Virus genome (UHGV): UHGV-0250353
Strand: one strand, 5' to 3'
From: a virus
DNA length: 45,006 bases
The notes under the pieces were generated by a model that saw nothing but the letters and a program-made list of their open reading frames with translations, had not been told where the DNA came from and searched no databases. A program made the translations under genes and the position numbers. This document shows positions 4,670 to 40,955 of this stretch, in pieces (within the stretch, counting starts at the first letter, position 1; each line of letters begins with the position of its first letter).

Positions 4670-4698
4670 TTGCACACCCCAATATAATAGGGTACTAT
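4670..4698 (+). promoter_or_regulatory. sigma70-like promoter TTGCAC-N17-TACTAT with palindromic operator TAATAGggtaCTATTC (4685..4700)
   Basis: hexamers and spacing read directly; same architecture as minus-strand promoters at 24746..24774 and 26253..26281. Confidence 0.5.
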
Positions 4699-4728
4699 TC
4701 ACCTACACCAACAATGGAGGGATTTAAA

Positions 4729-14071: not shown

Positions 14072-14144
14072 GAAAAGTCAACTATTCGAATAGTTTATTC
14101 CAACATTTACAATTGATTGGAATAACTGGAATAATTACGAGCCA

Positions 14145-14632: not shown

Positions 14633-15708
14633 TATTCCCCTTTCAGATAATCAGCAACACGTTTATCGAGTTCCGCCATCTGCTTAAGCGTGAGCGGATT
14701 CCCGAAACCATCTACAGATATTACGCGAAACTCTTCCGGCGATATACCGCTGTTACGGAAAATCTTACCGCGAACAGGGCCGAGTGCTTCATCCACGAAC
14801 CATGCCGGTTGTTGTTTAAGGAACTCGTAGTAAGTAGTGTCCGCGCTTACCTGAGTACCCCCGTCGGCACCCTTAGCTGCACGTTTTGCACCTTTATCCA
14901 AGAAGTCGAACTCAGAGCTGATTACTGGCGCAGTGGTACTCCGGCAATTCGGATGTGCTGGCGGCATCGGCCCCTTACCGATTTCCCACGTCATTCCGTC
15001 TCTGGCCCTACAAATCGTACTGGTACGGCTGTCCAGCGTCGACACCCACTCGTACTTCTCGATGATGTCGTCGTTCTGGCGGTACGTCTCGTTACGGGCT
15101 TCGTTGGATATGTGAGACAGCGCGGTGCGGATTACCGTAGCCGCGTTGCGCTCAGAGATGTCGGCCAGGCCACCAGCGCCAACAACATTCTTAACAATCT
15201 GCCGTGTTGTCTGGCCTTGTACAAAGCCCATCTTAACGCCGGTTACCAGGCGCGCGACTTCTGTTTCACCCCAGCCTGACATCAGCTTAGTGAAATCAAC
15301 AGGCTTGTCGCTTAACGATAGCGGCTGAAACTCGGCAGCGGCCCACACCTGTTCAGCAGTGGGTGTAACAAATTCCGCGTCTACGTTAGCCGTCAGCGTT
15401 TTTACATTCCACTCCGCTTCATACGCCGCCAGTTCTTTAAGGTCTTCTGTCAGCTTTGTTTGCCAGTCGCCTGTAAGTCCGCTCAGTGCTTCTTCCAGGT
15501 CGCGTAACAATTTATTCAGTCGCGCAGTGCTGCGACCGTCGTCGCCGAATAACAGCACCTGCCGTTTGATTTCGTCTCGCATTTCCTGAAGAAACGGCGC
15601 AAGGTCTTTCACTTCACCGGATGCGGTGCGTTGCAGCCATATCTGGTGGCTGATTAGGGATGTAAGTAAGCTCATAGTTAAATCCTGTGGCGCTAAAGTT
15701 AATAGCAT
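14632..15708 (-). CDS. head morphogenesis protein (Mu F / SPP1 gp7-like)
   Basis: signature TSTICRARDGMTWEIGKGPMPPAHPNCRSTT; located after portal. Confidence 0.75.
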   Translation of the reverse strand: MLLTLAPQDLTMSLLTSLISHQIWLQRTASGEVKDLAPFLQEMRDEIKRQVLLFGDDGRSTARLNKLLRDLEEALSGLTGDWQTKLTEDLKELAAYEAEWNVKTLTANVDAEFVTPTAEQVWAAAEFQPLSLSDKPVDFTKLMSGWGETEVARLVTGVKMGFVQGQTTRQIVKNVVGAGGLADISERNAATVIRTALSHISNEARNETYRQNDDIIEKYEWVSTLDSRTSTICRARDGMTWEIGKGPMPPAHPNCRSTTAPVISSEFDFLDKGAKRAAKGADGGTQVSADTTYYEFLKQQPAWFVDEALGPVRGKIFRNSGISPEEFRVISVDGFGNPLTLKQMAELDKRVADYLKGE

Positions 15709-15713
15709 ACTAT

Positions 15714-15734
15714 AAGAAAGCCCCTTTCGGGGCT
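15714..15734 (-). terminator. hairpin AGCCCC-UUUC-GGGGCU after portal gene (same 18-nt sequence as 14148..14165)
   Basis: read directly; U-rich tract follows on minus RNA. Confidence 0.4.
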
Positions 15735-15744
15735 ATATGCGAAC

Positions 15745-17226
15745 TTACTGCTGGGCGGTGTCTTGTTGCTGCGCCGACTGCGGAATCTCCCCCGCTACCG
15801 GAGTAGCAGCACCCAACGGCAGCGGCGCATCCTCAATAGCGTTCTGAATGTCCTCGTCGGTCCAGTCGGTTACCCCCGCCTTACGCAACGCAGCATAATA
15901 AGCGGTAGCTGGTAGTAGGCCTGCGTTAATATCCACCATCCACTGTGCACGGTCCTGAGCGGTCATCGGCTGCAGGAAGAACTCCATATTCAGCTTGAAC
16001 TCAATCTCTGTGCCTTCACGCAGCCCTAGCATCGCGGCTACCCAGCGCAACGCATCGGTATACGCCATGCTTACATTACGCGCGATTGTCGCCATAACAG
16101 ACGTATCAGCGCCACGTTGCAGGCGGGCCGATTCTGCAGTGATTTGCTGCGTCGGGGTAATAAGCTGCGCACCAATCTGAATGGCCTGATTCTCTTTATC
16201 CAGCATGTTCTGCTTGGCGAGATTGTTCTCTCCGGCCTGAACCAGAAACGCATTACCGCCGTAGCCAATGTTGTGGCCTGAACGCGACCCCATGCGCACG
16301 CCGTGAGGGTTGGCTTCGGTCCACTGTTCCATGCTCATATTCTCACCAGGGGCGATGAACAGAGTGGGCTGGCCCACGACGAAGCTGGATTCCTCATTAT
16401 CGGCGCTGTTGCGGAAATGCCCGATATTAAGCTCAGCTAACGGTAGCAAAGGTGCGTCGTCAATGGTGGCATCGTTGTTGCTCGCCCCGATGAACGTGAA
16501 CGGGATTTTGCCGCGTAACTGTCCGCCAAGTTCCGGGAAGATTTCTTTTACTTCACCCTGAGCGCCACCTTCGGCATCGAAGCGGTAAATACGCTGGCGG
16601 TAGCGCCCGTCAATCAAATCGAGAACGCGGTATTGCTCACCGAACTTTGTTTCGAACTCCGCGCCCGGTTCCGAGTATTCCCACACCTCGCGCAACACGA
16701 CCATCGTCACCCGGTTAACAGAACCGATGCGTGTCAGTCGCCAGTTGATGATGTTCTCTGCGGTGTAGAATGCGATGACCGGGTTTAATAATCCCGCGTT
16801 CTGTTCGGCTGCCGTTGCCGCAGCAGTCTCCGGCGCGTCCACCAGCAACCCACCACGGCCTACCGAGTCAATCTCCATTAGCGTATCCTGCGCGTGCTGC
16901 CACAGTCCGACACCGGAACCGTCGGCATTGCGTAACAGGTACTCAAGCTCAGGCGGGATAATCTGCTCAGGGTCTTTGCGCATCACTGACCCCACCATCC
17001 CAGCCAGGGTACGTTTAGTGAAGTTGTAGCAGATAGCGCCGTTCTCGTATTCTTCCTGTCGCTGTGCCGCGTAGGTCGGGTCAGGCTCGTTCTTCCCGAC
17101 GTTGCGCAGGTAGCGGATAAGGTCGCCCTCCAGCGCGTGGCGTACCTTCTGCCATTTATCGAAGTGGTGCAGCCATTCCCGGTGTTTTGTCTTAACACCC
17201 TGATTCTGACCGTTCATAGTTAACAT
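15745..17226 (-). CDS. portal protein
   Basis: 493 aa directly downstream of terminase large subunit; GAGGA RBS. Confidence 0.75.
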   Translation of the reverse strand: MLTMNGQNQGVKTKHREWLHHFDKWQKVRHALEGDLIRYLRNVGKNEPDPTYAAQRQEEYENGAICYNFTKRTLAGMVGSVMRKDPEQIIPPELEYLLRNADGSGVGLWQHAQDTLMEIDSVGRGGLLVDAPETAAATAAEQNAGLLNPVIAFYTAENIINWRLTRIGSVNRVTMVVLREVWEYSEPGAEFETKFGEQYRVLDLIDGRYRQRIYRFDAEGGAQGEVKEIFPELGGQLRGKIPFTFIGASNNDATIDDAPLLPLAELNIGHFRNSADNEESSFVVGQPTLFIAPGENMSMEQWTEANPHGVRMGSRSGHNIGYGGNAFLVQAGENNLAKQNMLDKENQAIQIGAQLITPTQQITAESARLQRGADTSVMATIARNVSMAYTDALRWVAAMLGLREGTEIEFKLNMEFFLQPMTAQDRAQWMVDINAGLLPATAYYAALRKAGVTDWTDEDIQNAIEDAPLPLGAATPVAGEIPQSAQQQDTAQQ

Positions 17227-21133: not shown

Positions 21134-21162
21134 CGATGAAGTAAATATAATAGGGTCTACGG
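21134..21162 (-). promoter_or_regulatory. sigma70-like promoter TTGACT-N17-TATATT
   Basis: hexamers read on minus strand, just downstream of tandem terminators. Confidence 0.45.
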
Positions 21163-21184
21163 TAATAGTCAACTAGTCATTACA

Positions 21185-21289: not shown

Positions 21290-21319
21290 GTCAATTGGTA
21301 AAATAAAACCCGGATTCGC
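21290..21319 (-). terminator. intrinsic terminator AACCCGGA...TCCGGGTT
   Basis: 8-bp stem, A/T-rich flank; tandem with 21185..21215 after endolysin. Confidence 0.5.
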
Positions 21320-24589: not shown

Positions 24590-24745
24590 TTTTAGCCTCT
24601 CTGTTCATAAGTTCCAGTAATAACCTAGCTGTTTGGCGCTCACGGGTGTTTCTCGGTGACGAGGCGTAGAACTCTAGCACCTCGCGTGATGGTTCTTGTG
24701 CGGTTTTACTGTTCACTCTGTCTCTCCACTCGTTGGTGTAAATGA

Positions 24746-24774
24746 ATAGTAGCCTATTCTATCTCAGTGTGCAA
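24746..24774 (-). promoter_or_regulatory. sigma70-like promoter TTGCAC-N17-TACTAT with operator GAATAGtagcCTATTC (24744..24759)
   Basis: read on minus strand; identical architecture to 26253..26281 and 4670..4698. Confidence 0.45.
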
Positions 24775-24781
24775 GTAAATT

Positions 24782-24955
24782 TTATTGGCGTGTTATAGAA
24801 TCTATGAACGACAGTAACGCGCGCTCCGCTTCTGCTTCTCTTTCTTCAAGCGACCAGGTAGCGGATTCCTCTGTTGCCGTTGCTATATCTGTTTTCACAT
24901 CAATCATCGTGTTGATTAACGCGATTAGTCGTTCGGCCTGTTCTTTAGTAATCAT
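24782..24955 (-). CDS. small hypothetical protein (57 aa)
   Basis: ATG 24955 with GGAG RBS; hand translation MITKEQAERLIALINTMIDV...; antisense to ORF-track ORF 24804..25016. Confidence 0.4.
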   Translation of the reverse strand: MITKEQAERLIALINTMIDVKTDIATATEESATWSLEEREAEAERALLSFIDSITRQ

Positions 24956-25080
24956 TGTTGCATCTCCTGCAATAGTCGCTTCTATTGTTGCGTTTGGTGA
25001 AATAGAACAAAAATGAGAAAAATGATACGCTGCTGTGTAGCAGCGTAAGTCACAAAGCCAAATAGTAACCTATTGACCTG

Positions 25081-26227: not shown

Positions 26228-26252
26228 CCCTCTGTCTCGTTTCGATAAGTGA

Positions 26253-26281
26253 ATAGTATCCTATTATGTTTGGGTGTGCAA
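26253..26281 (-). promoter_or_regulatory. sigma70-like promoter TTGCAC-N17-TACTAT with operator GAATAGtatcCTATTA (26251..26266)
   Basis: hexamers, spacing and palindrome read directly. Confidence 0.5.
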
Positions 26282-26323
26282 GAGAATAGTTACGTTGCCG
26301 TTGTGATTCTTTCGTTTCTTAAA

Positions 26324-26379
26324 AGAGTACGCAACGCAGGGGGTGGGCATTAGCCCACCCCAGCGGAGTGAAGTACTCT
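26324..26379. other. nested inverted repeat AGAGTAC...GGGTGGGC-atta-GCCCACCC...GTACTCT (structured element in control region)
   Basis: outer 7-bp and inner 8-bp complementary arms read directly; no adjacent U-run. Confidence 0.4.
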
Positions 26380-26453
26380 CTACCTTGCTCACGGCAACTA
26401 TAGAAACTTTTAATTATCAGTGACTTGGGTATTTAGGCGGGATTAACAATAGA

Positions 26454-26590
26454 CTATGGCCCTTCCGAATGCGGGCAGCGACACTACACTCAGTGCTAAC
26501 GCACCGCTCCGTTCTCCTGCCGCACCGCGGTCGCTTGTTCATACTTCACAAGCTCAGGTGGAGCTTAGCATATTTTTAGTGAAAAGTCAA
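26454..26590 (-). repeat. conserved noncoding element, copy B
   Basis: paralogue of 13936..14071; compensatory hairpin 26493..26504. Confidence 0.6.
26562..26590 (-). promoter_or_regulatory. candidate extended -10 promoter TTGACT-N17-TGcTAAGCT inside copy B
   Basis: same motif and position as in copy A. Confidence 0.4.
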
Positions 26591-27329: not shown

Positions 27330-29597
27330 ATGTCCGATGTAATTTTATCCTACTCGTGGTCCCGTCGCAACGCGCGGGCAGAGAAAAAGGATATAAACGT
27401 CAGAACTACACACACGGCAACACTGGACGACCTGAAAGAGTTAATCCAGCCGCTCGATGCTGTTCGTGACGGAATTAACCCTAAGACAGCACCTGGCTAT
27501 ATTACTGCCGCGTGCGACTCAACGCACAGCACCGTAAAAGACCCGGAAACCGGTGACTTTAAGCAAGCGCGTAAGGGTTTTTTCTATCGTTGCGACGCAT
27601 CTGTAAGCAAATCGTCACTGGCGTATCTGGACTTCGACAGCGCAACACCGGAAGAGTATCAGGAAGCGGTGCGCCTGGTTAAGCGCAGCCGCCAGGCTAT
27701 GTGCCTCTACACCACGGCATCGCATACCGATGAGTCTCCTCGCTTTCGCGTCGTCATGCCGCTGGGACGCCCGGTCGAAGGTGGCGACATCATCCGCGTT
27801 CGTCATGGATTGCTCGGGCACTTCTTCAAAGGCATGGGTGCTGACCGCAGCGGGTTCACTCTGTCACAGCCGATGTACCTGCCGCCGGTTGGCGCTACCG
27901 TTATCTGGTCACGCCGCAATGACCTGATTGACCCGGACGAGTTACTGGAGGGTATCCCCGCCGTTGACGTCAGCAGCGCATCGGATTACCAGATTCCGGA
28001 AGAACTGCGCACCGCGTTTACTGATGCGTTCGAGGTACTGGCGTTTGAGTACGGCGGCATCATGACGCCACGCGGCCTTAAGATGCCAGCTACACCGGAA
28101 CACGCAGAAAACTACAGCGATCCAACACCGCGCCTGGACGACTTCCTATTGTGCTTTCCGCGCGAAGGGTACGAAGCGCCTAACGTAACCATGATTCACG
28201 ACACCGACATTACCGCAACCGAAGGCATGTCGCCGAAGGAGGTGTGGAAGTATGCGTGTGATGCGACCGGGTTGCCGTTCAGTGAAGTCGCTGAGGCAAT
28301 CGGCTGGGGTGCGCGTGAATCAGTTTCATGCAGCCTGGACGACCTGGAAGACGATGAGGACTCAGAGGAGGACGAGTTACCAGAACCGGTAAAGGCTGAT
28401 TTCGTCGTTGAAGGGTACATGCCGTCAGATTGTATCTGGGATATTGTCGGGGAATCTGGCACGTACAAATCATTCTATACGCTGGGTATGATGTATCTCA
28501 GCGCCGCTGGTTACCGGTTTGCGGGGGCGGATACCCAGCGTTGTCACCATTTCTATATCGATGGTGAGGGTGGTGCAGCCACACGTACACGTATCGATGC
28601 CCTCGCGGCTAAATATGGCGAGGAAGGTAAAGATTACGTACATGTCATCGATATGGGCGAAGTCGGCAAACTGAAAAGCCTGATTAAGTTAATGCGCGAA
28701 ACCGCTGGCGATGAGCCAATAGGCATGGTTGCATTCGACACCCTTAACCAGACGCTGGCCCTGACAATCGATAAGTTCGACGAGAACAGTTCATCGACGG
28801 CAATCGGCATGGGTAAAGTTATCGCCATCCTGAAAGAAGTACGCGACGCAACTAAAGCCGCAGTAGGCGTTGTTCACCATACGCCGAAAGGCGGGAAGAA
28901 AGCACGTGGTAGCGGGGCACTGTATGCGGGTGTTGACGTGGAACTGACAATTGAGCGTGCAACCGACCGTCAGATAAACGTATATCACTCGAAATTTAAG
29001 CACGGGCCTCAACAGAAGACTGTTGGCATGGTTCTGGAGTCCGTACAGTTCCGTGAAGCCCCGCCGCCGAAACAGTACCGCGCGGTTGAGTTCCTGGGTA
29101 GCACAGAGGAATACGGCACAATCGTTAACCTCGACCTGCCGGAGCCGCACAAGGCGCTTGTGTTGATGCCGTGGGGCTTTGAACCGTTCAAGACCGACGA
29201 GGAGAAAGAGCGGGAAGAAGGGCTGACAAAGGAAGGTAAAGAAAACGTACGTAAAACCGTAGAGAACGCCGTCAACAGCTCAGAAGCCACAATACTGGCA
29301 GCGTTTGAACTGGCGGAAGGAACCTACAACGGAAACGAAGGTATCACAGTAGCCGCAGCGAATAAGCTGGCACAGTCCGACCCCAACGCAAAGGCGTTTA
29401 ACTCCAAAGAAGCCATAGAACGCGGGAAGATTAAGAAAATGGTTGAGGCCGGGTATCTTGTACCGGGGACTGACGAAAACAATCAGATAATACCGGGCCG
29501 TTACAGACTTAACACCAGGATAACAGATAACAAGATTCCGAAGACAATATACGAACCGAATGAAATGCTGACAGTGACCGAGGAGGATTTGGAATAG
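27330..29597 (+). CDS. primase/helicase-like replication protein (N-terminal primase-like region + RecA-like ATPase)
   Basis: Walker A GESGTYKS, Walker B-like region and VVHHTPKGG motif typical of RepA/DnaB-type ATPases; GAAGGA RBS. Confidence 0.65.
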   Translation: MSDVILSYSWSRRNARAEKKDINVRTTHTATLDDLKELIQPLDAVRDGINPKTAPGYITAACDSTHSTVKDPETGDFKQARKGFFYRCDASVSKSSLAYLDFDSATPEEYQEAVRLVKRSRQAMCLYTTASHTDESPRFRVVMPLGRPVEGGDIIRVRHGLLGHFFKGMGADRSGFTLSQPMYLPPVGATVIWSRRNDLIDPDELLEGIPAVDVSSASDYQIPEELRTAFTDAFEVLAFEYGGIMTPRGLKMPATPEHAENYSDPTPRLDDFLLCFPREGYEAPNVTMIHDTDITATEGMSPKEVWKYACDATGLPFSEVAEAIGWGARESVSCSLDDLEDDEDSEEDELPEPVKADFVVEGYMPSDCIWDIVGESGTYKSFYTLGMMYLSAAGYRFAGADTQRCHHFYIDGEGGAATRTRIDALAAKYGEEGKDYVHVIDMGEVGKLKSLIKLMRETAGDEPIGMVAFDTLNQTLALTIDKFDENSSSTAIGMGKVIAILKEVRDATKAAVGVVHHTPKGGKKARGSGALYAGVDVELTIERATDRQINVYHSKFKHGPQQKTVGMVLESVQFREAPPPKQYRAVEFLGSTEEYGTIVNLDLPEPHKALVLMPWGFEPFKTDEEKEREEGLTKEGKENVRKTVENAVNSSEATILAAFELAEGTYNGNEGITVAAANKLAQSDPNAKAFNSKEAIERGKIKKMVEAGYLVPGTDENNQIIPGRYRLNTRITDNKIPKTIYEPNEMLTVTEEDLE

Positions 29598-29606
29598 GTA
29601 AAAAGA

Positions 29607-29625
29607 AAGGGGCGTTAAGCCCCTT
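29607..29625 (-). terminator. hairpin AAGGGGC-guuaa-GCCCCUU at 3' end of HTH gene
   Basis: 7-bp stem read directly; U-rich tract on minus RNA; between convergent genes. Confidence 0.45.
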
Positions 29626-29830
29626 CACCCAACGCCAGCCACTTGGCGTCTACTTGCAGCACTTCCGCCAGTTTAAACAGCGTTGCCGGGCGGACGTCCT
29701 GAGTTACCCCGAGTGCAAGCTGGTTAATCGCGCCCTGGGAAACGCCCGCAAGGACCGCCAGACGGCGCTGGGAGATACCGAGTTCTTTACGGCGTTGCTC
29801 TACACGGATGCCTAGTTCAGATGGTTGCAT
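29615..29830 (-). CDS. XRE-family HTH transcriptional regulator (Cro/CI-like, 71 aa)
   Basis: LGISQRRLAVLAGVSQGAINQLALG HTH; AAGGAG RBS; divergent from operator-bearing promoters. Confidence 0.7.
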   Translation of the reverse strand: MQPSELGIRVEQRRKELGISQRRLAVLAGVSQGAINQLALGVTQDVRPATLFKLAEVLQVDAKWLALGEGA

Positions 29831-29894
29831 GTCAATTACTCCTTAGTCAGTTGATATGTGAATAGTACCATATTAATTATTTTAGAAAAGCCCA

Positions 29895-29923
29895 TTGACA
29901 CGTGAATAGTTCGCTATTATAGT
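29895..29923 (+). promoter_or_regulatory. sigma70-like promoter TTGACA-N17-TATAGT with operator GAATAGttcgCTATTA (29904..29919); degenerate tandem copy at 29851..29879
   Basis: consensus -35, 17-nt spacer, good -10 read directly. Confidence 0.55.
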
Positions 29924-29955
29924 TAGCCTATACCAAACGAGAGGAGAGAAACAAA

Positions 29956-30105
29956 ATGATTAACAACCGCAAAGCAAAGGTTCTGTTGGGCCTTGATATC
30001 GCATTTGGAACTAAAGAAACCGCACGCTATCGCGTAAGCAACAATCGTGTTGGCTTCTTCGACAAAGCTACAGGCCAGTTAGTTAAAACCGTTAAATATA
30101 AATAA
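29956..30105 (+). CDS. small hypothetical protein (49 aa)
   Basis: GGAGAGAAACAAA-ATG initiation region nearly identical to that of next gene; hand translation. Confidence 0.4.
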   Translation: MINNRKAKVLLGLDIAFGTKETARYRVSNNRVGFFDKATGQLVKTVKYK

Positions 30106-30120
30106 ACAGGAGAGAAACAA

Positions 30121-30621
30121 ATGTTAGACCAATTCTTAAAATTACTGGAACGTTTCGTAGTTGCACATGAACTGATTGCTGCGAACAGCGCGAAAGAACC
30201 TGTGATTGGCTCCCCGGAACATTTTGCTGAGTTTTGTAAGTTGCAGGGTGTAAGTGTAAAAGAGGCTTTAACTAAACCTTCAAAAGAAATCCCGGTCGAA
30301 GGTGAAGACATCGTCGACACTAAACCGGCAGAAGAAGAGAAGCCAAAACGTAAGACGCGTAAAGCTAAAGTAGAGGAACCAACGCCAGAACCGGAAGAAG
30401 AGAAAGAAGAAGTCGATTACCAGTCTCTTCGTGACCAGATTCAGGCTATCGATGATGCAATTAACGAAGGTCCGAGTGATGCTGCGTGTGACGATTCTGA
30501 TGAACTGCTGGAAGAGTTCACCGGTAAGAAGATGAAGATTGCCGCGATTAAAGACGAAGACCTGGCCGAGTACCTGGAACGCCTCACGGCAATCAAGAAC
30601 AAGTATTTCGAAGAAGAATAA
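30121..30621 (+). CDS. hypothetical acidic protein
   Basis: ORF track 166 aa; Glu/Asp-rich C-terminal half. Confidence 0.55.
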   Translation: MLDQFLKLLERFVVAHELIAANSAKEPVIGSPEHFAEFCKLQGVSVKEALTKPSKEIPVEGEDIVDTKPAEEEKPKRKTRKAKVEEPTPEPEEEKEEVDYQSLRDQIQAIDDAINEGPSDAACDDSDELLEEFTGKKMKIAAIKDEDLAEYLERLTAIKNKYFEEE

Positions 30622-30676
30622 CTACTTAACTTATGGTGCCATCATACGTGAGGGCACCAAACTGAGGGTCGGAATT

Positions 30677-31165
30677 ATGGATTGGCATGAGATATTCGAC
30701 TATGACCGCGCCACAGGAAAATTGTATTGGAAAATACAGCCATCTCATGCGGTTAAGCCGGGTGAAGAGGCTGGAAGTGTGGGAACTGAGGGTTATGTAG
30801 ATGTTGGTTTTGCAGGCCGTTTATATAAGGCGCATCGCATTATATGGGATATGATGAACACTGACGATAAACTAACGCCGAACCACCAAATAGACCACAT
30901 AAACCATATCAGAACGGATAATAGGATAGAAAATTTAAGGAAGGTACACCACTGTGACAACGCCAAAAATCAAAGCATGCGCGTAGACAATACCTCAGGT
31001 GTCGCGGGAGTATACTTCGACCGAACTAATAGAAAATGGAGGGCCCGCATTAGGGCGAGTGGCACGACCATTTGTTTGGGGAGATACGATAGTTTAGAAG
31101 AAGCCGCATGCGCACGCCAGAAAGCAGAAGAGATTTACGGGTTTCACAAAAATCATGGGGGGTAA
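30677..31165 (+). CDS. HNH homing endonuclease with AP2-like domain
   Basis: QIDHINHIRTDNRIENLR HNH motif, paralogue of 6086..6556; ATG 30677 with GAGGG RBS preferred over ORF-track start. Confidence 0.75.
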   Translation: MDWHEIFDYDRATGKLYWKIQPSHAVKPGEEAGSVGTEGYVDVGFAGRLYKAHRIIWDMMNTDDKLTPNHQIDHINHIRTDNRIENLRKVHHCDNAKNQSMRVDNTSGVAGVYFDRTNRKWRARIRASGTTICLGRYDSLEEAACARQKAEEIYGFHKNHGG

Positions 31166-32410: not shown

Positions 32411-32643
32411 TTCGTAAAATGTTCGGAGTAATTGGCGGTTTTGTAGCGTTTTTAACCTATCACGCTCTAATACTGCCGCTGGTTATAATGCTTCTTCCGT
32501 TTTTCGTGTATACCGCCTTTAAGTGCAGGAAAATAGAACTAGAGGATTTGGTGTACGCCAAAGAAGTTGAGTGGGTGCGTAATTTGAAGTGGCCCAACGT
32601 ATACCTAACTATAGTTGAGAAAATAACTGGCTGGAAGGGTTGA
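32407..32643 (+). CDS. small membrane protein
   Basis: ATG 32407 overlapping upstream stop; hydrophobic helices. Confidence 0.45.
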   Translation: MIRKMFGVIGGFVAFLTYHALILPLVIMLLPFFVYTAFKCRKIELEDLVYAKEVEWVRNLKWPNVYLTIVEKITGWKG

Positions 32644-32668
32644 CACCTGAATAGCAAGCTATTATAGT
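32640..32668 (+). promoter_or_regulatory. sigma70-like promoter TTGACA-N17-TATAGT with operator GAATAGcaagCTATTA (32649..32664)
   Basis: read directly; -35 overlaps stop codon of upstream gene. Confidence 0.55.
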
Positions 32669-32722: not shown

Positions 32723-33349
32723 ATGGGCATTAAACTGAATCTGCGTAAAGTAAACACTGCATGGGTTAACGTATTCGAACGCGAAAAAGACCGTGAAAAC
32801 GATGATGGCTCAATCACTAAAGGCCAGTACAGCGCGACTATTATCCTGCCGTCTGACCATGCTCAAATCGACGCACTCTACGACACTGTTTACGCGGTAG
32901 TTGAGGAAGCGTTAGGTGCAGCGGCTGCCGAGAAGTGGATGAAGTCCAACTACGGCGAGGGTAAGCACATGGATAAATGCGCGATTAAAGACATTGCTGA
33001 GCGTGACAATCCGTTTGAAGACTTCCCGGAAGGCTTCTACTTCAAAGCGAAGGCACAGAAACAGCCGCTGATTGTGACCTCTAAAAAAGGTGAGACTCAG
33101 GTAGAGCAGGACTTCAACGTAGACGGCGAACAGATTGAAGGCGAACAGGTTTACAGCGGCTGCGTTGCTAACGTAAGCGTTGAAATCTGGTTCAGCCAGA
33201 AATATAAAGTCCTCGGCGTTAACCTGCTGGCAATTAAATACGTCGGTGAAGGTAAAGCGTTCGGTGGTTCTAAAGTCGCCGCGAGCGTCGATGACCTGGA
33301 AGACGACGATGAAGATGAAGCACCACGCCGCGAACGTCGTCGTCGCTAA
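32723..33349 (+). CDS. ssDNA-binding protein-like (DUF2815-type), acidic C-terminal tail
   Basis: N-terminus MGIKLNLRKVNTAWVNVFE pattern and DDLEDDDEDE tail; position before DNA polymerase. Confidence 0.55.
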   Translation: MGIKLNLRKVNTAWVNVFEREKDRENDDGSITKGQYSATIILPSDHAQIDALYDTVYAVVEEALGAAAAEKWMKSNYGEGKHMDKCAIKDIAERDNPFEDFPEGFYFKAKAQKQPLIVTSKKGETQVEQDFNVDGEQIEGEQVYSGCVANVSVEIWFSQKYKVLGVNLLAIKYVGEGKAFGGSKVAASVDDLEDDDEDEAPRRERRRR

Positions 33350-36166: not shown

Positions 36167-36447
36167 CCCCGGAAGGCAAGATTCAGAAATACGCAAAAGA
36201 GAGGTTCGAGGCCCTGGGCGGCCTCGTTAGAAAATTGTCGTACGAAAATAGAGTAGGCGCTCCTGACCTGCTGGTGATTCTCCCCTGGAGCATCGTCTGG
36301 TTCGTCGAGGTGAAGAAAGACGAAAACACGAAGCCAGACCCGCACCAGCTACGTGAGCACGAGCGGATGCGCAAACGCGGTGCAAATGTTTTTGTCGTTG
36401 GTTCGTTTAAACAGGTTGACGACCTAATAGCGAACTATTATAGTTAG
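36163..36447 (+). CDS. VRR-NUC domain nuclease
   Basis: GAPDLLVI...WFVEVKK PD-(D/E)XK signature; ATG 36163. Confidence 0.65.
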   Translation: MTPEGKIQKYAKERFEALGGLVRKLSYENRVGAPDLLVILPWSIVWFVEVKKDENTKPDPHQLREHERMRKRGANVFVVGSFKQVDDLIANYYS

Positions 36448-39119: not shown

Positions 39120-40955
39120 GATAGATACATTACCAGCAACCTTCCACACACCAGAGCCAACATGAACCCATTTATAAGGTTGCCCTGCAATCGGCGTAAT
39201 AAGCTCCCATCGTGCCCCGTTTCCGAATTGTGTAACCGACACGTCAGGCGGAACGCTCCCGTATACGTGTGCAATGCCATTAATGAGGTACCCGGTAGCA
39301 GTCCAGGATGAAGTACCCCAAACGGTGTAATTACCATTATAGTGTGAGTAGTTTAGCCATGATGTTGAAGCCCCCCACAGGACTCTGGAAGCCTCCGGTG
39401 CAACAGTGTTATCAATGTTAAGAGTAGTGTCATTAACTTGCCAGTATTTGCTAGTATGTGAGCCAGAGAACTCTGGTAAGTAACTTGCTGTAATCGTCAC
39501 ACCGCATTGTGTAAATATGCATGCAACCACACCTGTATCCACAAGGTTAACACCACGGAACCCATTAATAACCATTCTTGACTGATTACACTCAAAGAAA
39601 CTTCCGTGTATTTCTTCGGCCCCACAGCCATCCATCACTACACTAGTACACCCTAAGAATACATAAGCGGAACCAGTTACATAATCCGCGGCACAACCTT
39701 TAAGATTGGAATAAGTAATGTTAGTAAACTTATATGCCCAACGGGATACATTCCTGACATAAACATTATTTAAGTTAAAGGTCGTACCACCAGTATCTAC
39801 AGAAATACCATCTTGAACATCTTTAATGAGAAGTGAATCAAACACCTGAAGCCAGCTATTACTTGTTCGGTACCCTGTCATCACGTTTTCTATATACAGG
39901 TCTTCTAATCGAACCATGTAACTAATCGCGCTATAGATGCCATAGGCATTTTTGGCGGGAGCAGCTCCAATTAAGCTCATCCCAGTTATTCCTCCGGAAC
40001 GACTAAAGTTACCGGTTAAATCACCAGCCTCACTGGAATCCATATCTATAGCGGCGATAAAATCAAGCGAAAAGCTATGCGGCGCACCCTGCCATATACG
40101 ATCAGGAACTGTTTTAATATCGTTGCCTGTTTTGCGTAGGCCGCAGGAGTCTCTGCCAATCCCCTCCCACATGACGCGGGGAGGGCGTATAGCTCCATAC
40201 TTAATATCATAAAAATCTGAGAATCTTAACTTACCTCCAGTCTGTGGAAGGCAAGAATGAATACGCTCAAGAGCTTCACTGTTTTGCTCAGCTGTACGAG
40301 ATGCCATCATGCCGCCGTTCTCTACCGGAATATCGATGTGGCTTCCTGCTCTCTTCCAGCGCTTACCTCCGGGGGTAACAAAAATATTCACACCATCATC
40401 AGCTTCAGAACTGGAAAAGGCTATAAATGTTCCTCCCCCAAGCCCGGGTGTGTCAGAGTAGTAGCCGCGTACCGTGATAACTTGGTTAGATACGGTTGGT
40501 TCTATCGTCCGCAGAGTAGCCACATCGGGGCAAGTTCCTACTAATTTTTCTCCGTCGATTTCGGATAATTCTTCGCGTAAATTCGGGTCGGTCTGCGGCT
40601 TCCAGTTAAAGTTACCAACCGGGTTAAATGATGCGGGGACAACAACCGGCAACGTACCCGCATACGAGTACCACGTCTTGCTTACAGGGTCATACACCAC
40701 TTTGTCGCGGTCATTAACTGTTAACGTACCGCCGGTGGAAAAGTCCCACGATACAGGAGAAAAACCTGCATCGCGCAACACGGCCGGAAGCGTCTTCTGT
40801 GTCTGCCCGGTAACCTGATTTGTCGCGTAATCGATATCAGCGCCACCAGCAACACCACCGGATTTACCGGTGATAACTTCGGCTTCGAAAATCTGGTGCT
40901 TCTTGGCGGTTTGCAAATCCGCCAGGCTTAGAACGTCACCGCATCCGCTTGACAT
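39117..40955 (-). CDS. tailspike / tail fibre with beta-helix-like repeats (putative depolymerase)
   Basis: 612 aa, last gene of tail module; repetitive Gly/Asn/Val-rich middle typical of parallel beta-helix; GAGGA RBS. Confidence 0.6.
   Translation of the reverse strand: MSSGCGDVLSLADLQTAKKHQIFEAEVITGKSGGVAGGADIDYATNQVTGQTQKTLPAVLRDAGFSPVSWDFSTGGTLTVNDRDKVVYDPVSKTWYSYAGTLPVVVPASFNPVGNFNWKPQTDPNLREELSEIDGEKLVGTCPDVATLRTIEPTVSNQVITVRGYYSDTPGLGGGTFIAFSSSEADDGVNIFVTPGGKRWKRAGSHIDIPVENGGMMASRTAEQNSEALERIHSCLPQTGGKLRFSDFYDIKYGAIRPPRVMWEGIGRDSCGLRKTGNDIKTVPDRIWQGAPHSFSLDFIAAIDMDSSEAGDLTGNFSRSGGITGMSLIGAAPAKNAYGIYSAISYMVRLEDLYIENVMTGYRTSNSWLQVFDSLLIKDVQDGISVDTGGTTFNLNNVYVRNVSRWAYKFTNITYSNLKGCAADYVTGSAYVFLGCTSVVMDGCGAEEIHGSFFECNQSRMVINGFRGVNLVDTGVVACIFTQCGVTITASYLPEFSGSHTSKYWQVNDTTLNIDNTVAPEASRVLWGASTSWLNYSHYNGNYTVWGTSSWTATGYLINGIAHVYGSVPPDVSVTQFGNGARWELITPIAGQPYKWVHVGSGVWKVAGNVSI

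Follow-up and report, generated by a model that had tools for sequence, protein, structure and literature searches.

The DNA analysed here is a 45,006-nucleotide stretch of a viral genome (UHGV-0250353), referred to throughout as the window. This report concerns a small divergent regulatory locus in it (29607..29955), which consists of a regulator gene and the promoters and operators upstream of it, and the recurrence of the putative operator elsewhere in the genome. Comparison of positions 29300..30700 with phage sequences gave matches to 446 records at 80-95% identity. The matches were to Kagunavirus (LM08P2, fFiEco02, K1G, Schulenburg), with Salmonella phages of the genus Jerseyvirus also present at a greater distance. 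These matches identify the genome in the window as Kagunavirus-like and place it in the subfamily Guernseyvirinae.

The regulator gene (29615..29830, minus strand) is an open reading frame (ORF) with an ATG start which encodes a protein of 71 residues. An earlier note on this DNA had assigned the product to the XRE family of helix-turn-helix (HTH) proteins, and the assignment is borne out by the similarity searches. The protein matched Pfam HTH_3 (PF01381) over residues 11-65 with 48.1 bits (cut-off 23; E 1.2e-12), which places it in the XRE/lambda-repressor-like HTH superfamily, and it also matched HTH_19 and HTH_31. The best match in a phmmer search of the PDB was 434 Cro (E 1.8e-6, approximately 40% identity), residues 6-68 of the regulator being aligned with residues 4-64 of 434 Cro; the N-terminal domain of 434 cI and P22 c2 were close behind. 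A single-sequence AlphaFold2 (AF2) model (pLDDT 85) contained five helices with a predicted compact helix 2-turn-helix 3 fold. With this model Foldseek returned 2cro (434 Cro) as the top match (TM 0.70/0.76, 39% identity), while HipB, the 434 cI N-terminal domain, SinR and C.AhdI were among the other top matches. The chain stops at residue 71, straight after helix 5, and carries no C-terminal oligomerisation or S24 autocleavage domain; it is a single-domain HTH protein of the 434 Cro type, equivalent to the N-terminal domain of CI.

The properties of the regulator are divided between those of Cro and those of CI. It shares with Cro the single domain of about 70 residues and the homology to 434 Cro, but its gene is not the first of the rightward early operon, and a CI with which it could compete at a tripartite operator is missing, there being no other HTH-family match among 67 scanned ORF products and only two operators, 44 bp apart. 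Its gene occupies the position of cI, divergent from the rightward promoter P_R, with operators over both promoters (O1 on the -10 of the regulator, O2 within the P_R spacer), but the HTH domain is not joined to the C-terminal oligomerisation/S24 domain of CI. The most fitting description of the regulator is a DNA-binding domain of the CI/Cro type that has neither a C-terminal domain nor a partner.

Homologs of the regulator were found by tblastn in about 546 phage records of the genera Kagunavirus, Jerseyvirus and Cornellvirus. The protein of phage Jersey is approximately 50% identical to that of the window, and that of the Cornellvirus Shemara 39%. When representatives of the three genera were aligned and the alignment was used to scan IMG/VR, 62 loci were recovered; the counts for Kagunavirus given below are based on 34 loci and on 35 P_R sequences. 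Purifying selection on the gene is strong, with a ratio of nonsynonymous to synonymous polymorphism (pN/pS) of 0.057 among the 34 Kagunavirus alleles. This value and the presence of the gene in about 546 records indicate that it is not a decaying remnant. It is the only minus-strand gene in the rightward arm, as the earlier note had it, and relatives are annotated likewise. The regulator, the -10 of its promoter and the operators are kept in the 34 Kagunavirus loci, and an orthologous locus is present in Jersey and, with a variant motif, in Shemara.

A ribosome-binding site, AAGGAG (29839..29844, minus strand), lies 8 nt before the ATG and is kept in all Kagunavirus and Jerseyvirus loci examined. 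The transcript of the regulator is predicted to end at an intrinsic terminator (29606..29626, minus strand), which consists of a GGGGC/GCCCC hairpin followed by UUUCUUUUU and overlaps the last codons of the gene. On the minus strand the stop codon leads into this structure (29626..29606) and then into TTTCTTTTT. Because a U tract is lacking when the hairpin is read in the plus-strand direction, it would end the regulator transcript far better than the convergent transcript of the helicase-primase gene. A terminator is annotated at the equivalent position in phage Schulenburg, and an Rfam scan of 29300..30300 gave nothing above noise. The helicase-primase gene is convergent with the regulator in Kagunavirus and Jerseyvirus; in Shemara (L003, 35330..38169) it lies downstream of the regulator on the same strand and is probably co-transcribed with it. 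In RNA sequencing (RNA-seq) of the Kagunavirus K1B4, a "specific DNA binding" gene beside an AAA helicase gene was classed as a middle gene (PMC12645636), and this gene is presumed to be the orthologue of the regulator. If it is, the regulator would be expressed during infection, contrary to one of the refuting conditions named in the earlier note, although the study resolves time poorly. The supplementary files searched for per-gene expression of the orthologue list host genes only.

Rightward transcription from the locus is predicted to start at P_R (29895..29923, plus strand; TTGACA-17-TATAGT), which matches the sigma-70 consensus in 11 of 12 positions, agrees with the strong promoter described earlier and would drive the rightward replication/recombination arm. 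Both of the operator copies listed in the earlier note are real, the apparent functional unit being a 14-bp palindrome, AATAG-N4-CTATT. Putative operator O2, AATAGTTCGCTATT (29905..29918), is perfect (10/10 half-site bases) and lies in the spacer of P_R with its centre at about -18.5. Putative operator O1, AATAGTACCATATT (29861..29874), has 9/10 half-site bases (mismatch ATATT) and lies over the -10 of the regulator's own promoter with its centre at about -12.5. The two are contained in a 25-nt direct repeat (29851-29875 and 29895-29919, 80% identical), and O1 is near-invariant across the 34 Kagunavirus loci, with one centre variant.

The predicted promoter of the regulator, P_L (29862..29870, minus strand), is an extended -10, TGgTACTAT, with no -35. 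The -10 (TACTAT, 29867..29862) and the lack of a -35 had both been recorded correctly, but the TG at -15/-14 (TGGTACTAT), which makes this a TGn extended -10 and is kept in all 34 Kagunavirus loci, had been overlooked, and so had a second leftward candidate, TTCACG-16-TAAAAT (29879..29906, minus strand; 9/12). The -35 of this candidate abuts O2, and its use would put O1 at about +1..+12. It is kept in Kagunavirus and absent from Jersey, and is less favoured for that reason. The position of the P_L -10 is kept in both Jersey (TTGCGT-17-TACTAT) and Shemara (TTGTTA-18-TATACT), each of which has a -35. The assignment of TACTAT as the -10 of P_L is supported by its identity to the -10 found 17 bp from TTGCAC at three other sites in the window (type B, below). 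Transcription from P_L is predicted to start near 29855, from which the centre of O1 is at about -12.5 and that of O2 at about -56.5. Whichever leftward promoter is used, both operators predict negative autoregulation.

The palindrome is not confined to this locus. Seven exact copies of AATAG-N4-CTATT were identified in the window (4686, 24745, 25061, 26252, 29905, 32650 and 36426), against 0.04 expected from base composition; each of the seven is either intergenic or overlaps only the final codons of a gene. Allowing one mismatch, 11 copies were identified against 1.2 expected, a number reached in none of 100 shuffles. It is the most enriched 5-N-5 palindrome of the window, with terminator hairpins ranking next. 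When O1 and a one-mismatch site at 21164 are added to the exact copies, eight of the nine sites overlap predicted core promoter elements, the exception being 25061. The palindrome lies on at least eight promoters, in three registers. At least seven of the promoters across the genome are additional to the divergent pair, and since these carry the same palindrome, the regulon predicted from it is global, not local.

In the first register (type A, TTGAC(A/G)-N4-AATAG-N4-CTAT followed directly by TATAGT) the palindrome occupies the spacer with its centre near -18.5. The three promoters with this arrangement, at 29895 (P_R), 32640 and 36416, are the strongest of those reading rightward in the replication arm. 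The promoter at 32640..32668 (plus strand; TTGACA-17-TATAGT) holds operator AATAGCAAGCTATT (32650..32663) and is upstream of the genes for a single-stranded DNA-binding protein and DNA polymerase; its counterpart in Jersey is at 32930. The promoter at 36416..36444 (plus strand; TTGACG-17-TATAGT) holds operator AATAGCGAACTATT (36426..36439) and has its Jersey orthologue at 29243.

In the second register (type B, TTGCAC-17-TACTAT) the centre is near -12.5, the -10 being the reverse complement of the half-site AATAGTA. It is found rightward at 4686 and leftward at 24745 and 26252, and weaker TATTAT/TATTCT promoters are predicted on the opposite strand, so that one palindrome could serve a back-to-back pair. 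Such a pair (26240..26281) is built around a shared operator, AATAGTATCCTATT (26252..26265). TTGCAC-17-TACTAT (26281..26253) reads leftward, and the predicted rightward promoter (26240..26267, plus strand; TTTCGA-16-TATTAT) faces the helicase-primase operon. This site is present in 30 of the 34 Kagunavirus loci and has a Jersey orthologue at 39910. The 228-bp divergent region in which it lies (26228..26455) also holds a GC-rich hairpin (approximately 26340..26362). At 24733..24774, operator AATAGTAGCCTATT (24745..24758) lies over the -10 of a leftward TTGCAC-17-TACTAT promoter (24774..24746), and a weaker rightward promoter, TTGGTG-16-TATTCT, is predicted. At 4670..4711, operator AATAGGGTACTATT (4686..4699; Jersey orthologue 16957) lies over the -10 of a rightward promoter, TTGCAC-17-TACTAT (4670..4698), and a divergent leftward promoter (minus strand; TTGGTG-16-TATTAT) is predicted to face the tail genes.

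The third register (type C) is represented by a strong leftward promoter (21144..21177, minus strand), TTGACT-17-TATATT (21172..21144), in which the -35 lies within the one-mismatch palindrome ACTAGTTGACTATT (21164..21177). The Jersey orthologue of this site (42338) has one mismatch too, in the other half-site. The exact palindrome AATAGTAACCTATT (25061..25074) has no convincing promoter; it adjoins a terminator-like hairpin (25030..25046) at the end of a leftward small-gene operon, and its Jersey orthologue (39668) has one mismatch. It is possibly a roadblock or a regulated terminator. The idea that the palindrome is simply part of the promoter consensus of this phage was rejected, because the strong minus-strand promoter at 21294 has no site; in addition, P21172 carries it in another register.

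The pattern of variation among relatives agrees with an operator for a dimeric HTH protein: the site is two-fold symmetric, and its half-sites, separated by one helical turn, are conserved while the centre is free to change. Among the 35 Kagunavirus P_R sequences no minor allele was found in the 10 half-site columns of the palindrome, as against 17 in the 4 centre columns (centres TTCG, CTAG, TTTG, CTCG, TTCA and TTAG). The 4-5 nt beside the P_R -35 also vary and include a 1-nt indel. P32640 keeps its half-sites around centres CAAG, TTAG, TTGG, TAAG and CGAG, even though the phages share no related sequence upstream of its -35. In Jersey, AATAG-N4-CTATT is again the top-ranked palindrome (four exact copies), and seven sites of the window have positional orthologues there, at 16957, 29243, 32930, 35812, 39668, 39910 and 42338. 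The genome of Shemara contains no AATAG..CTATT site; its orthologous promoters carry ATTAG-N4-GTAT(T/A) instead, with four exact copies against approximately 0.3 expected, the latter figure being an estimate from motif length.

Which protein binds the palindrome was considered next to these data. In a Pfam scan of the 67 ORF products of the window, the regulator was the only HTH-family match, the other DNA-binding matches being NinH and three HNH/AP2 endonucleases (three products match AP2 and two of them also HNH_3). An HTH_17/Cox-like protein, whose gene sits in the rightward early operon of Jersey (gp53) and of Schulenburg (Schulenburg_056), was rejected as the binder since tblastn found no copy in the window, in which the palindromes are present. 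A host transcription factor is disfavoured as well. The two Salmonella phage genera are split, Shemara having ATTAG-N4-GTAT(T/A) and Jerseyvirus the AATAG..CTATT of the Escherichia coli Kagunavirus phages, so that the motif tracks phage lineage and not host.

The strongest argument was obtained from distant homologs of the regulator in IMG/VR, which are full-length CI-type repressors of 150-262 residues. A GDSM-type S24-peptidase C-terminal domain is present in L039, L051, L053, L055, L059, L060 and L068, and most of the distant homologs have a small divergent upstream ORF of approximately 70-110 residues, in several cases clearly HTH/Cro-like. CI-type homologs in unrelated contigs that have the recognition helix GV(S/T)QG(A/L)I are immediately preceded by palindromes of the form A[AT]TA[GC]-N4-[GC]TA[AT]T. 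L059 and L060 have three in tandem at 24-bp intervals (ATTACATACGTATT, AATACCTTTGTATT and ATTACAATCGTAAT), L057 has two (ATTAGACACCTAAT and AATAGCACACTAAT) and L061 one (AATAGCATCCTAAT). Where the recognition helix is a different one (RVAISK, QSLIAG), the repeats differ as well. Because unrelated CI-type homologs that share the helix also share the operator family, the link between protein family and operator family does not depend on the Guernseyvirinae backbone. Based on these associations, the regulator probably binds AATAG-N4-CTATT.

The explanation considered somewhat more probable than all others together is that the regulator is an autoregulated, Cro-like global repressor of early and middle transcription which acts through AATAG-N4-CTATT. 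A presumed dimer, consisting of a DNA-binding domain only (434 Cro/CI N-terminal type), would recognise the 14-bp palindrome, one copy of which is built into the core of almost every predicted sigma-70 promoter of the phage. As the operators overlap the -35, the spacer or the -10, a bound dimer would exclude RNA polymerase, and repression is presumed in preference to activation. The regulator would be transcribed from the weak extended -10 promoter divergent from P_R and, on accumulating, would probably fill the perfect operators first. These belong to P_R, P32640 and P36416, to the divergent early region (26252) and to two further units (24745 and 4686). Their occupation would turn down early and middle functions (replication, recombination and the leftward small-gene units). 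The imperfect O1 would be filled later, giving negative autoregulation, so that the imperfect sites, at its own promoter and at the 21172 promoter leading into the small-gene/packaging/structural arm, would be the last to be repressed. Its presumed physiological role would be that of a Cro-like turn-down factor in lytic growth and not that of one half of a lysis/lysogeny switch. The system is not a bistable switch, since there is no Cro partner, no C-terminal domain and no integrase.

Several points weigh against this explanation. Sites on nearly all promoters, including those of the unit towards the lysis genes and of the tail genes, give no obvious early-to-late programme, and what drives the late genes once the regulator is abundant is left unexplained by the model. 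The RNA-seq of K1B4 is coarse in time and has no clear early shut-off (PMC12645636). The Shemara motif is a poor palindrome, and Kagunavirus and Jerseyvirus have one operator but different recognition helices (SQGAINQ and SQSLITH, respectively), so that helix and operator do not covary cleanly within the subfamily; this comparison became informative with the distant CI-type homologs only. Part of the palindrome coincides with -10-like sequence (TACTAT/TATTAT), and some of the conservation at back-to-back promoters could therefore stem from promoter function alone. The searchable literature contained no binding, footprint or transcription start data for any Guernseyvirinae regulator.

The last but one of these points leads to the proposal that the palindrome is not the operator of the regulator at all, being instead a duplicated promoter module of overlapping divergent -10s or the site of another factor, with the HTH protein acting elsewhere, for example on host genes. 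Half of the palindrome does resemble a -10 (TACTAT, or TATTAT when the opposite strand is read), back-to-back promoter pairs are found at several of the sites, and most small phage proteins have no known function. At P_R, P32640 and P36416, however, the palindrome is in the spacer, where sigma-70 has no sequence need and no leftward gene is served, and there the half-sites are invariant while the centres drift. The occurrence of the same operator family beside homologous repressors of unrelated phages, the lineage-bound motif and the lack of the other candidate HTH protein in the window also speak against it, and it is considered improbable. Much the same low standing is given to a local lambda-like switch, in which the protein at O2 would repress P_R and, in the manner of CI at PRM, activate its own promoter, which lacks a -35; O1 would serve for negative autoregulation at high concentration. 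The divergent promoters with two operators 44 bp apart and the missing -35 agree with such a switch. So does the distance between the operator centres, which is 44 bp in the window (29861/29905), 55 bp in Jersey (L002, 35776..35908) and 64 bp in Shemara (L003, 35184..35329), or approximately 4.2, 5.2 and 6.1 helical turns; the two sites are on roughly the same face of the helix in all three genera. This constant phase may hint at an interaction of bound dimers, or may be due to chance, as there are three points only. Lambda PRM is activated by CI from a position near -42, but the centre of O2 is at about -56.5 from the predicted start. The conserved TGn extended -10 makes an activator unnecessary, and the orthologous promoters of Jersey and Shemara have a -35, so that the activator-dependent, PRM-like promoter suggested in the earlier note is not supported. 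The "compact genetic switch" of that note holds in that palindromes overlap both divergent promoters, but fails in that there is one regulator only, with no second one among the 67 scanned ORF products to provide bistability and no CI C-terminal domain, the first gene after P_R is variable and not cro, and most of the operators are elsewhere in the genome.

A further alternative bears on lifestyle, which is disputed for this subfamily: several papers deny any repressor gene, yet the regulator gene is universal. The Kagunavirus group is called strictly lytic, without integrase or repressor genes (PMC13216507, PMC12919940), whereas one paper classed a Jerseyvirus as temperate, largely on the strength of the regulator gene (PMC8790156). 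In many GenBank records the orthologues are labelled "Cro", "repressor" or "HTH protein". It is conceivable, though unlikely, that Guernseyvirinae carry a complete one-protein silencing circuit, a domain-only remnant of CI whose main role is CI-like and which would silence the whole genome, hold an integrase-independent episomal or pseudolysogenic carrier state and confer superinfection immunity. The gene is in the cI position, divergent from P_R, its distant homologs are full-length CI proteins with S24 domains, and operators are on nearly all promoters. The Jerseyvirus SGP-C was reported to form turbid plaques and immune "lysogens" with an episomal genome, and its orthologous ORF49 was named a repressor, but the support consists of polymerase chain reaction (PCR) and read coverage only and is weak (PMC8790156). 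A circular 44,086-bp Kagunavirus-like "plasmid", pC16EC0033-2, has been deposited for the E. coli blood isolate C16EC0033 (CP088689.1, PLSDB). It has the same helicase/HTH/DUF2800 layout (L094, 1191-6096) and could represent either a carrier state or contamination of the culture by phage. Without a C-terminal oligomerisation/autocleavage domain, cooperativity and SOS induction would be lacking. The Pfam scan of the 67 ORF products revealed no partition, telomere or integrase functions, in keeping with the earlier note, which had recognised no integrase. A search of 5,426 complete E. coli genomes with their plasmids detected no Kagunavirus DNA. Among 185,579 representative genomes there was likewise no close relative, the matches being confined to distant XRE proteins and one probable phage contaminant. 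Most papers on the group also describe clear plaques and strictly lytic growth (PMC13216507, PMC12919940).

Among known systems, the repressor-by-turn-down proposed here is closest to 434 Cro (P03036; PDB 2cro, 3cro, 1zug). Both proteins have 71 residues and the five-helix lambda-repressor-like fold, and both have a 14-bp operator with conserved outer bases and a variable centre. The 434 operator is ACAA-N6-TTGT, while the half-site here is AATAG. Unlike the gene of 434 Cro, that of the regulator is divergent from P_R and not first in the P_R operon, there is neither a CI partner nor an OR1-OR2-OR3 triplet, the operators are genome-wide and the phage is regarded as virulent. The CI-type (LexA-like, S24) repressors 434 cI, P22 c2, L059 and L060 have a homologous DNA-binding domain and the same orientation to a divergent rightward promoter, and those of the L059/L060 type share the recognition helix GVSQGAI and the operator family A[AT]TA[GC]-N4-[GC]TA[AT]T. 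They differ in having a C-terminal dimerisation/autocleavage domain, a small Cro-like gene opposite and three tandem sites 24 bp apart where the window has one operator per promoter.

Dispersed operators are known for P1 C1, for the "stoperators" of mycobacteriophage L5 gp71 and for the phiC31 repressor, the sites of P1 and L5 being asymmetric. As proposed for the window, control is genome-wide, with about a dozen scattered sites for a single repressor, located at promoters or shortly behind them. Those phages are temperate and have larger, unrelated or multi-domain repressors, in contrast to a 71-residue XRE domain with symmetric palindromes in a subfamily described as lytic. The controller (C) proteins of restriction-modification systems (C.AhdI, C.BclI) and prophage regulators of the DicA/RacR type, which appear among the fold and tblastn matches of the regulator, are likewise small dimers of the XRE fold that autoregulate from palindromic boxes over their own promoters. 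C proteins, however, control one operon from two adjacent boxes, with activation followed by repression, whereas here an adjacent activating second box is lacking and many targets are remote.

Neither an analysis of the regulator nor a description of its regulon was found in the searchable literature. An XRE/Cro-type regulator with palindromic operators is of an ordinary, already known kind. The new element is a map of the probable regulon, according to which this regulator appears to be wired genome-wide, more widely than the earlier note supposed. The map provides a testable model for the scheduling of transcription in a small siphophage without an RNA polymerase or sigma factor of its own. 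It links a palindrome conserved from E. coli Kagunavirus to Salmonella Jerseyvirus with the operator family of unrelated CI repressors, and it offers a compact repressor/operator pair with graded natural promoters for the engineering of Kagunavirus chassis phages. It also bears on the safety claim that Guernseyvirinae therapy phages lack "lysogeny genes". Phages of this subfamily are widely used, and approved, as "strictly lytic" agents of biocontrol and therapy, and a carrier state, if true, would matter for therapy and food safety.

Some minor features were noted beside the sites described. The first gene after P_R occupies a hypervariable slot (29956..30105 in the window, the same position in L004-L037): after the conserved promoter and ribosome-binding site, Kagunavirus phages carry unrelated small ORFs or pass directly into a gene for a 166-residue protein. 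In the window the slot is filled by a 49-residue ORF which has no Pfam match and is not of the HTH type. Also within the P_R operon, the product of 30539..31165 (HNH_3 plus AP2) is homing-endonuclease-like, and its gene overlaps the end of the 166-residue gene. A small ORF (24804..25016, plus strand, or 24782..24955, minus strand; the coding strand is uncertain) is the lone opposite-strand ORF of the leftward arm and has a palindrome on either side. As a second regulator the plus-strand ORF was rejected, its product being of low complexity and hydrophobic, with no Pfam match and with the C-terminus alone conserved with Jersey gp56. Between the portal and head-morphogenesis genes a one-mismatch palindrome (15701..15714) adjoins a terminator, and at 14080..14095 the same half-sites occur in inverted order with a 2-bp gap (AACTATT-CG-AATAGTT).

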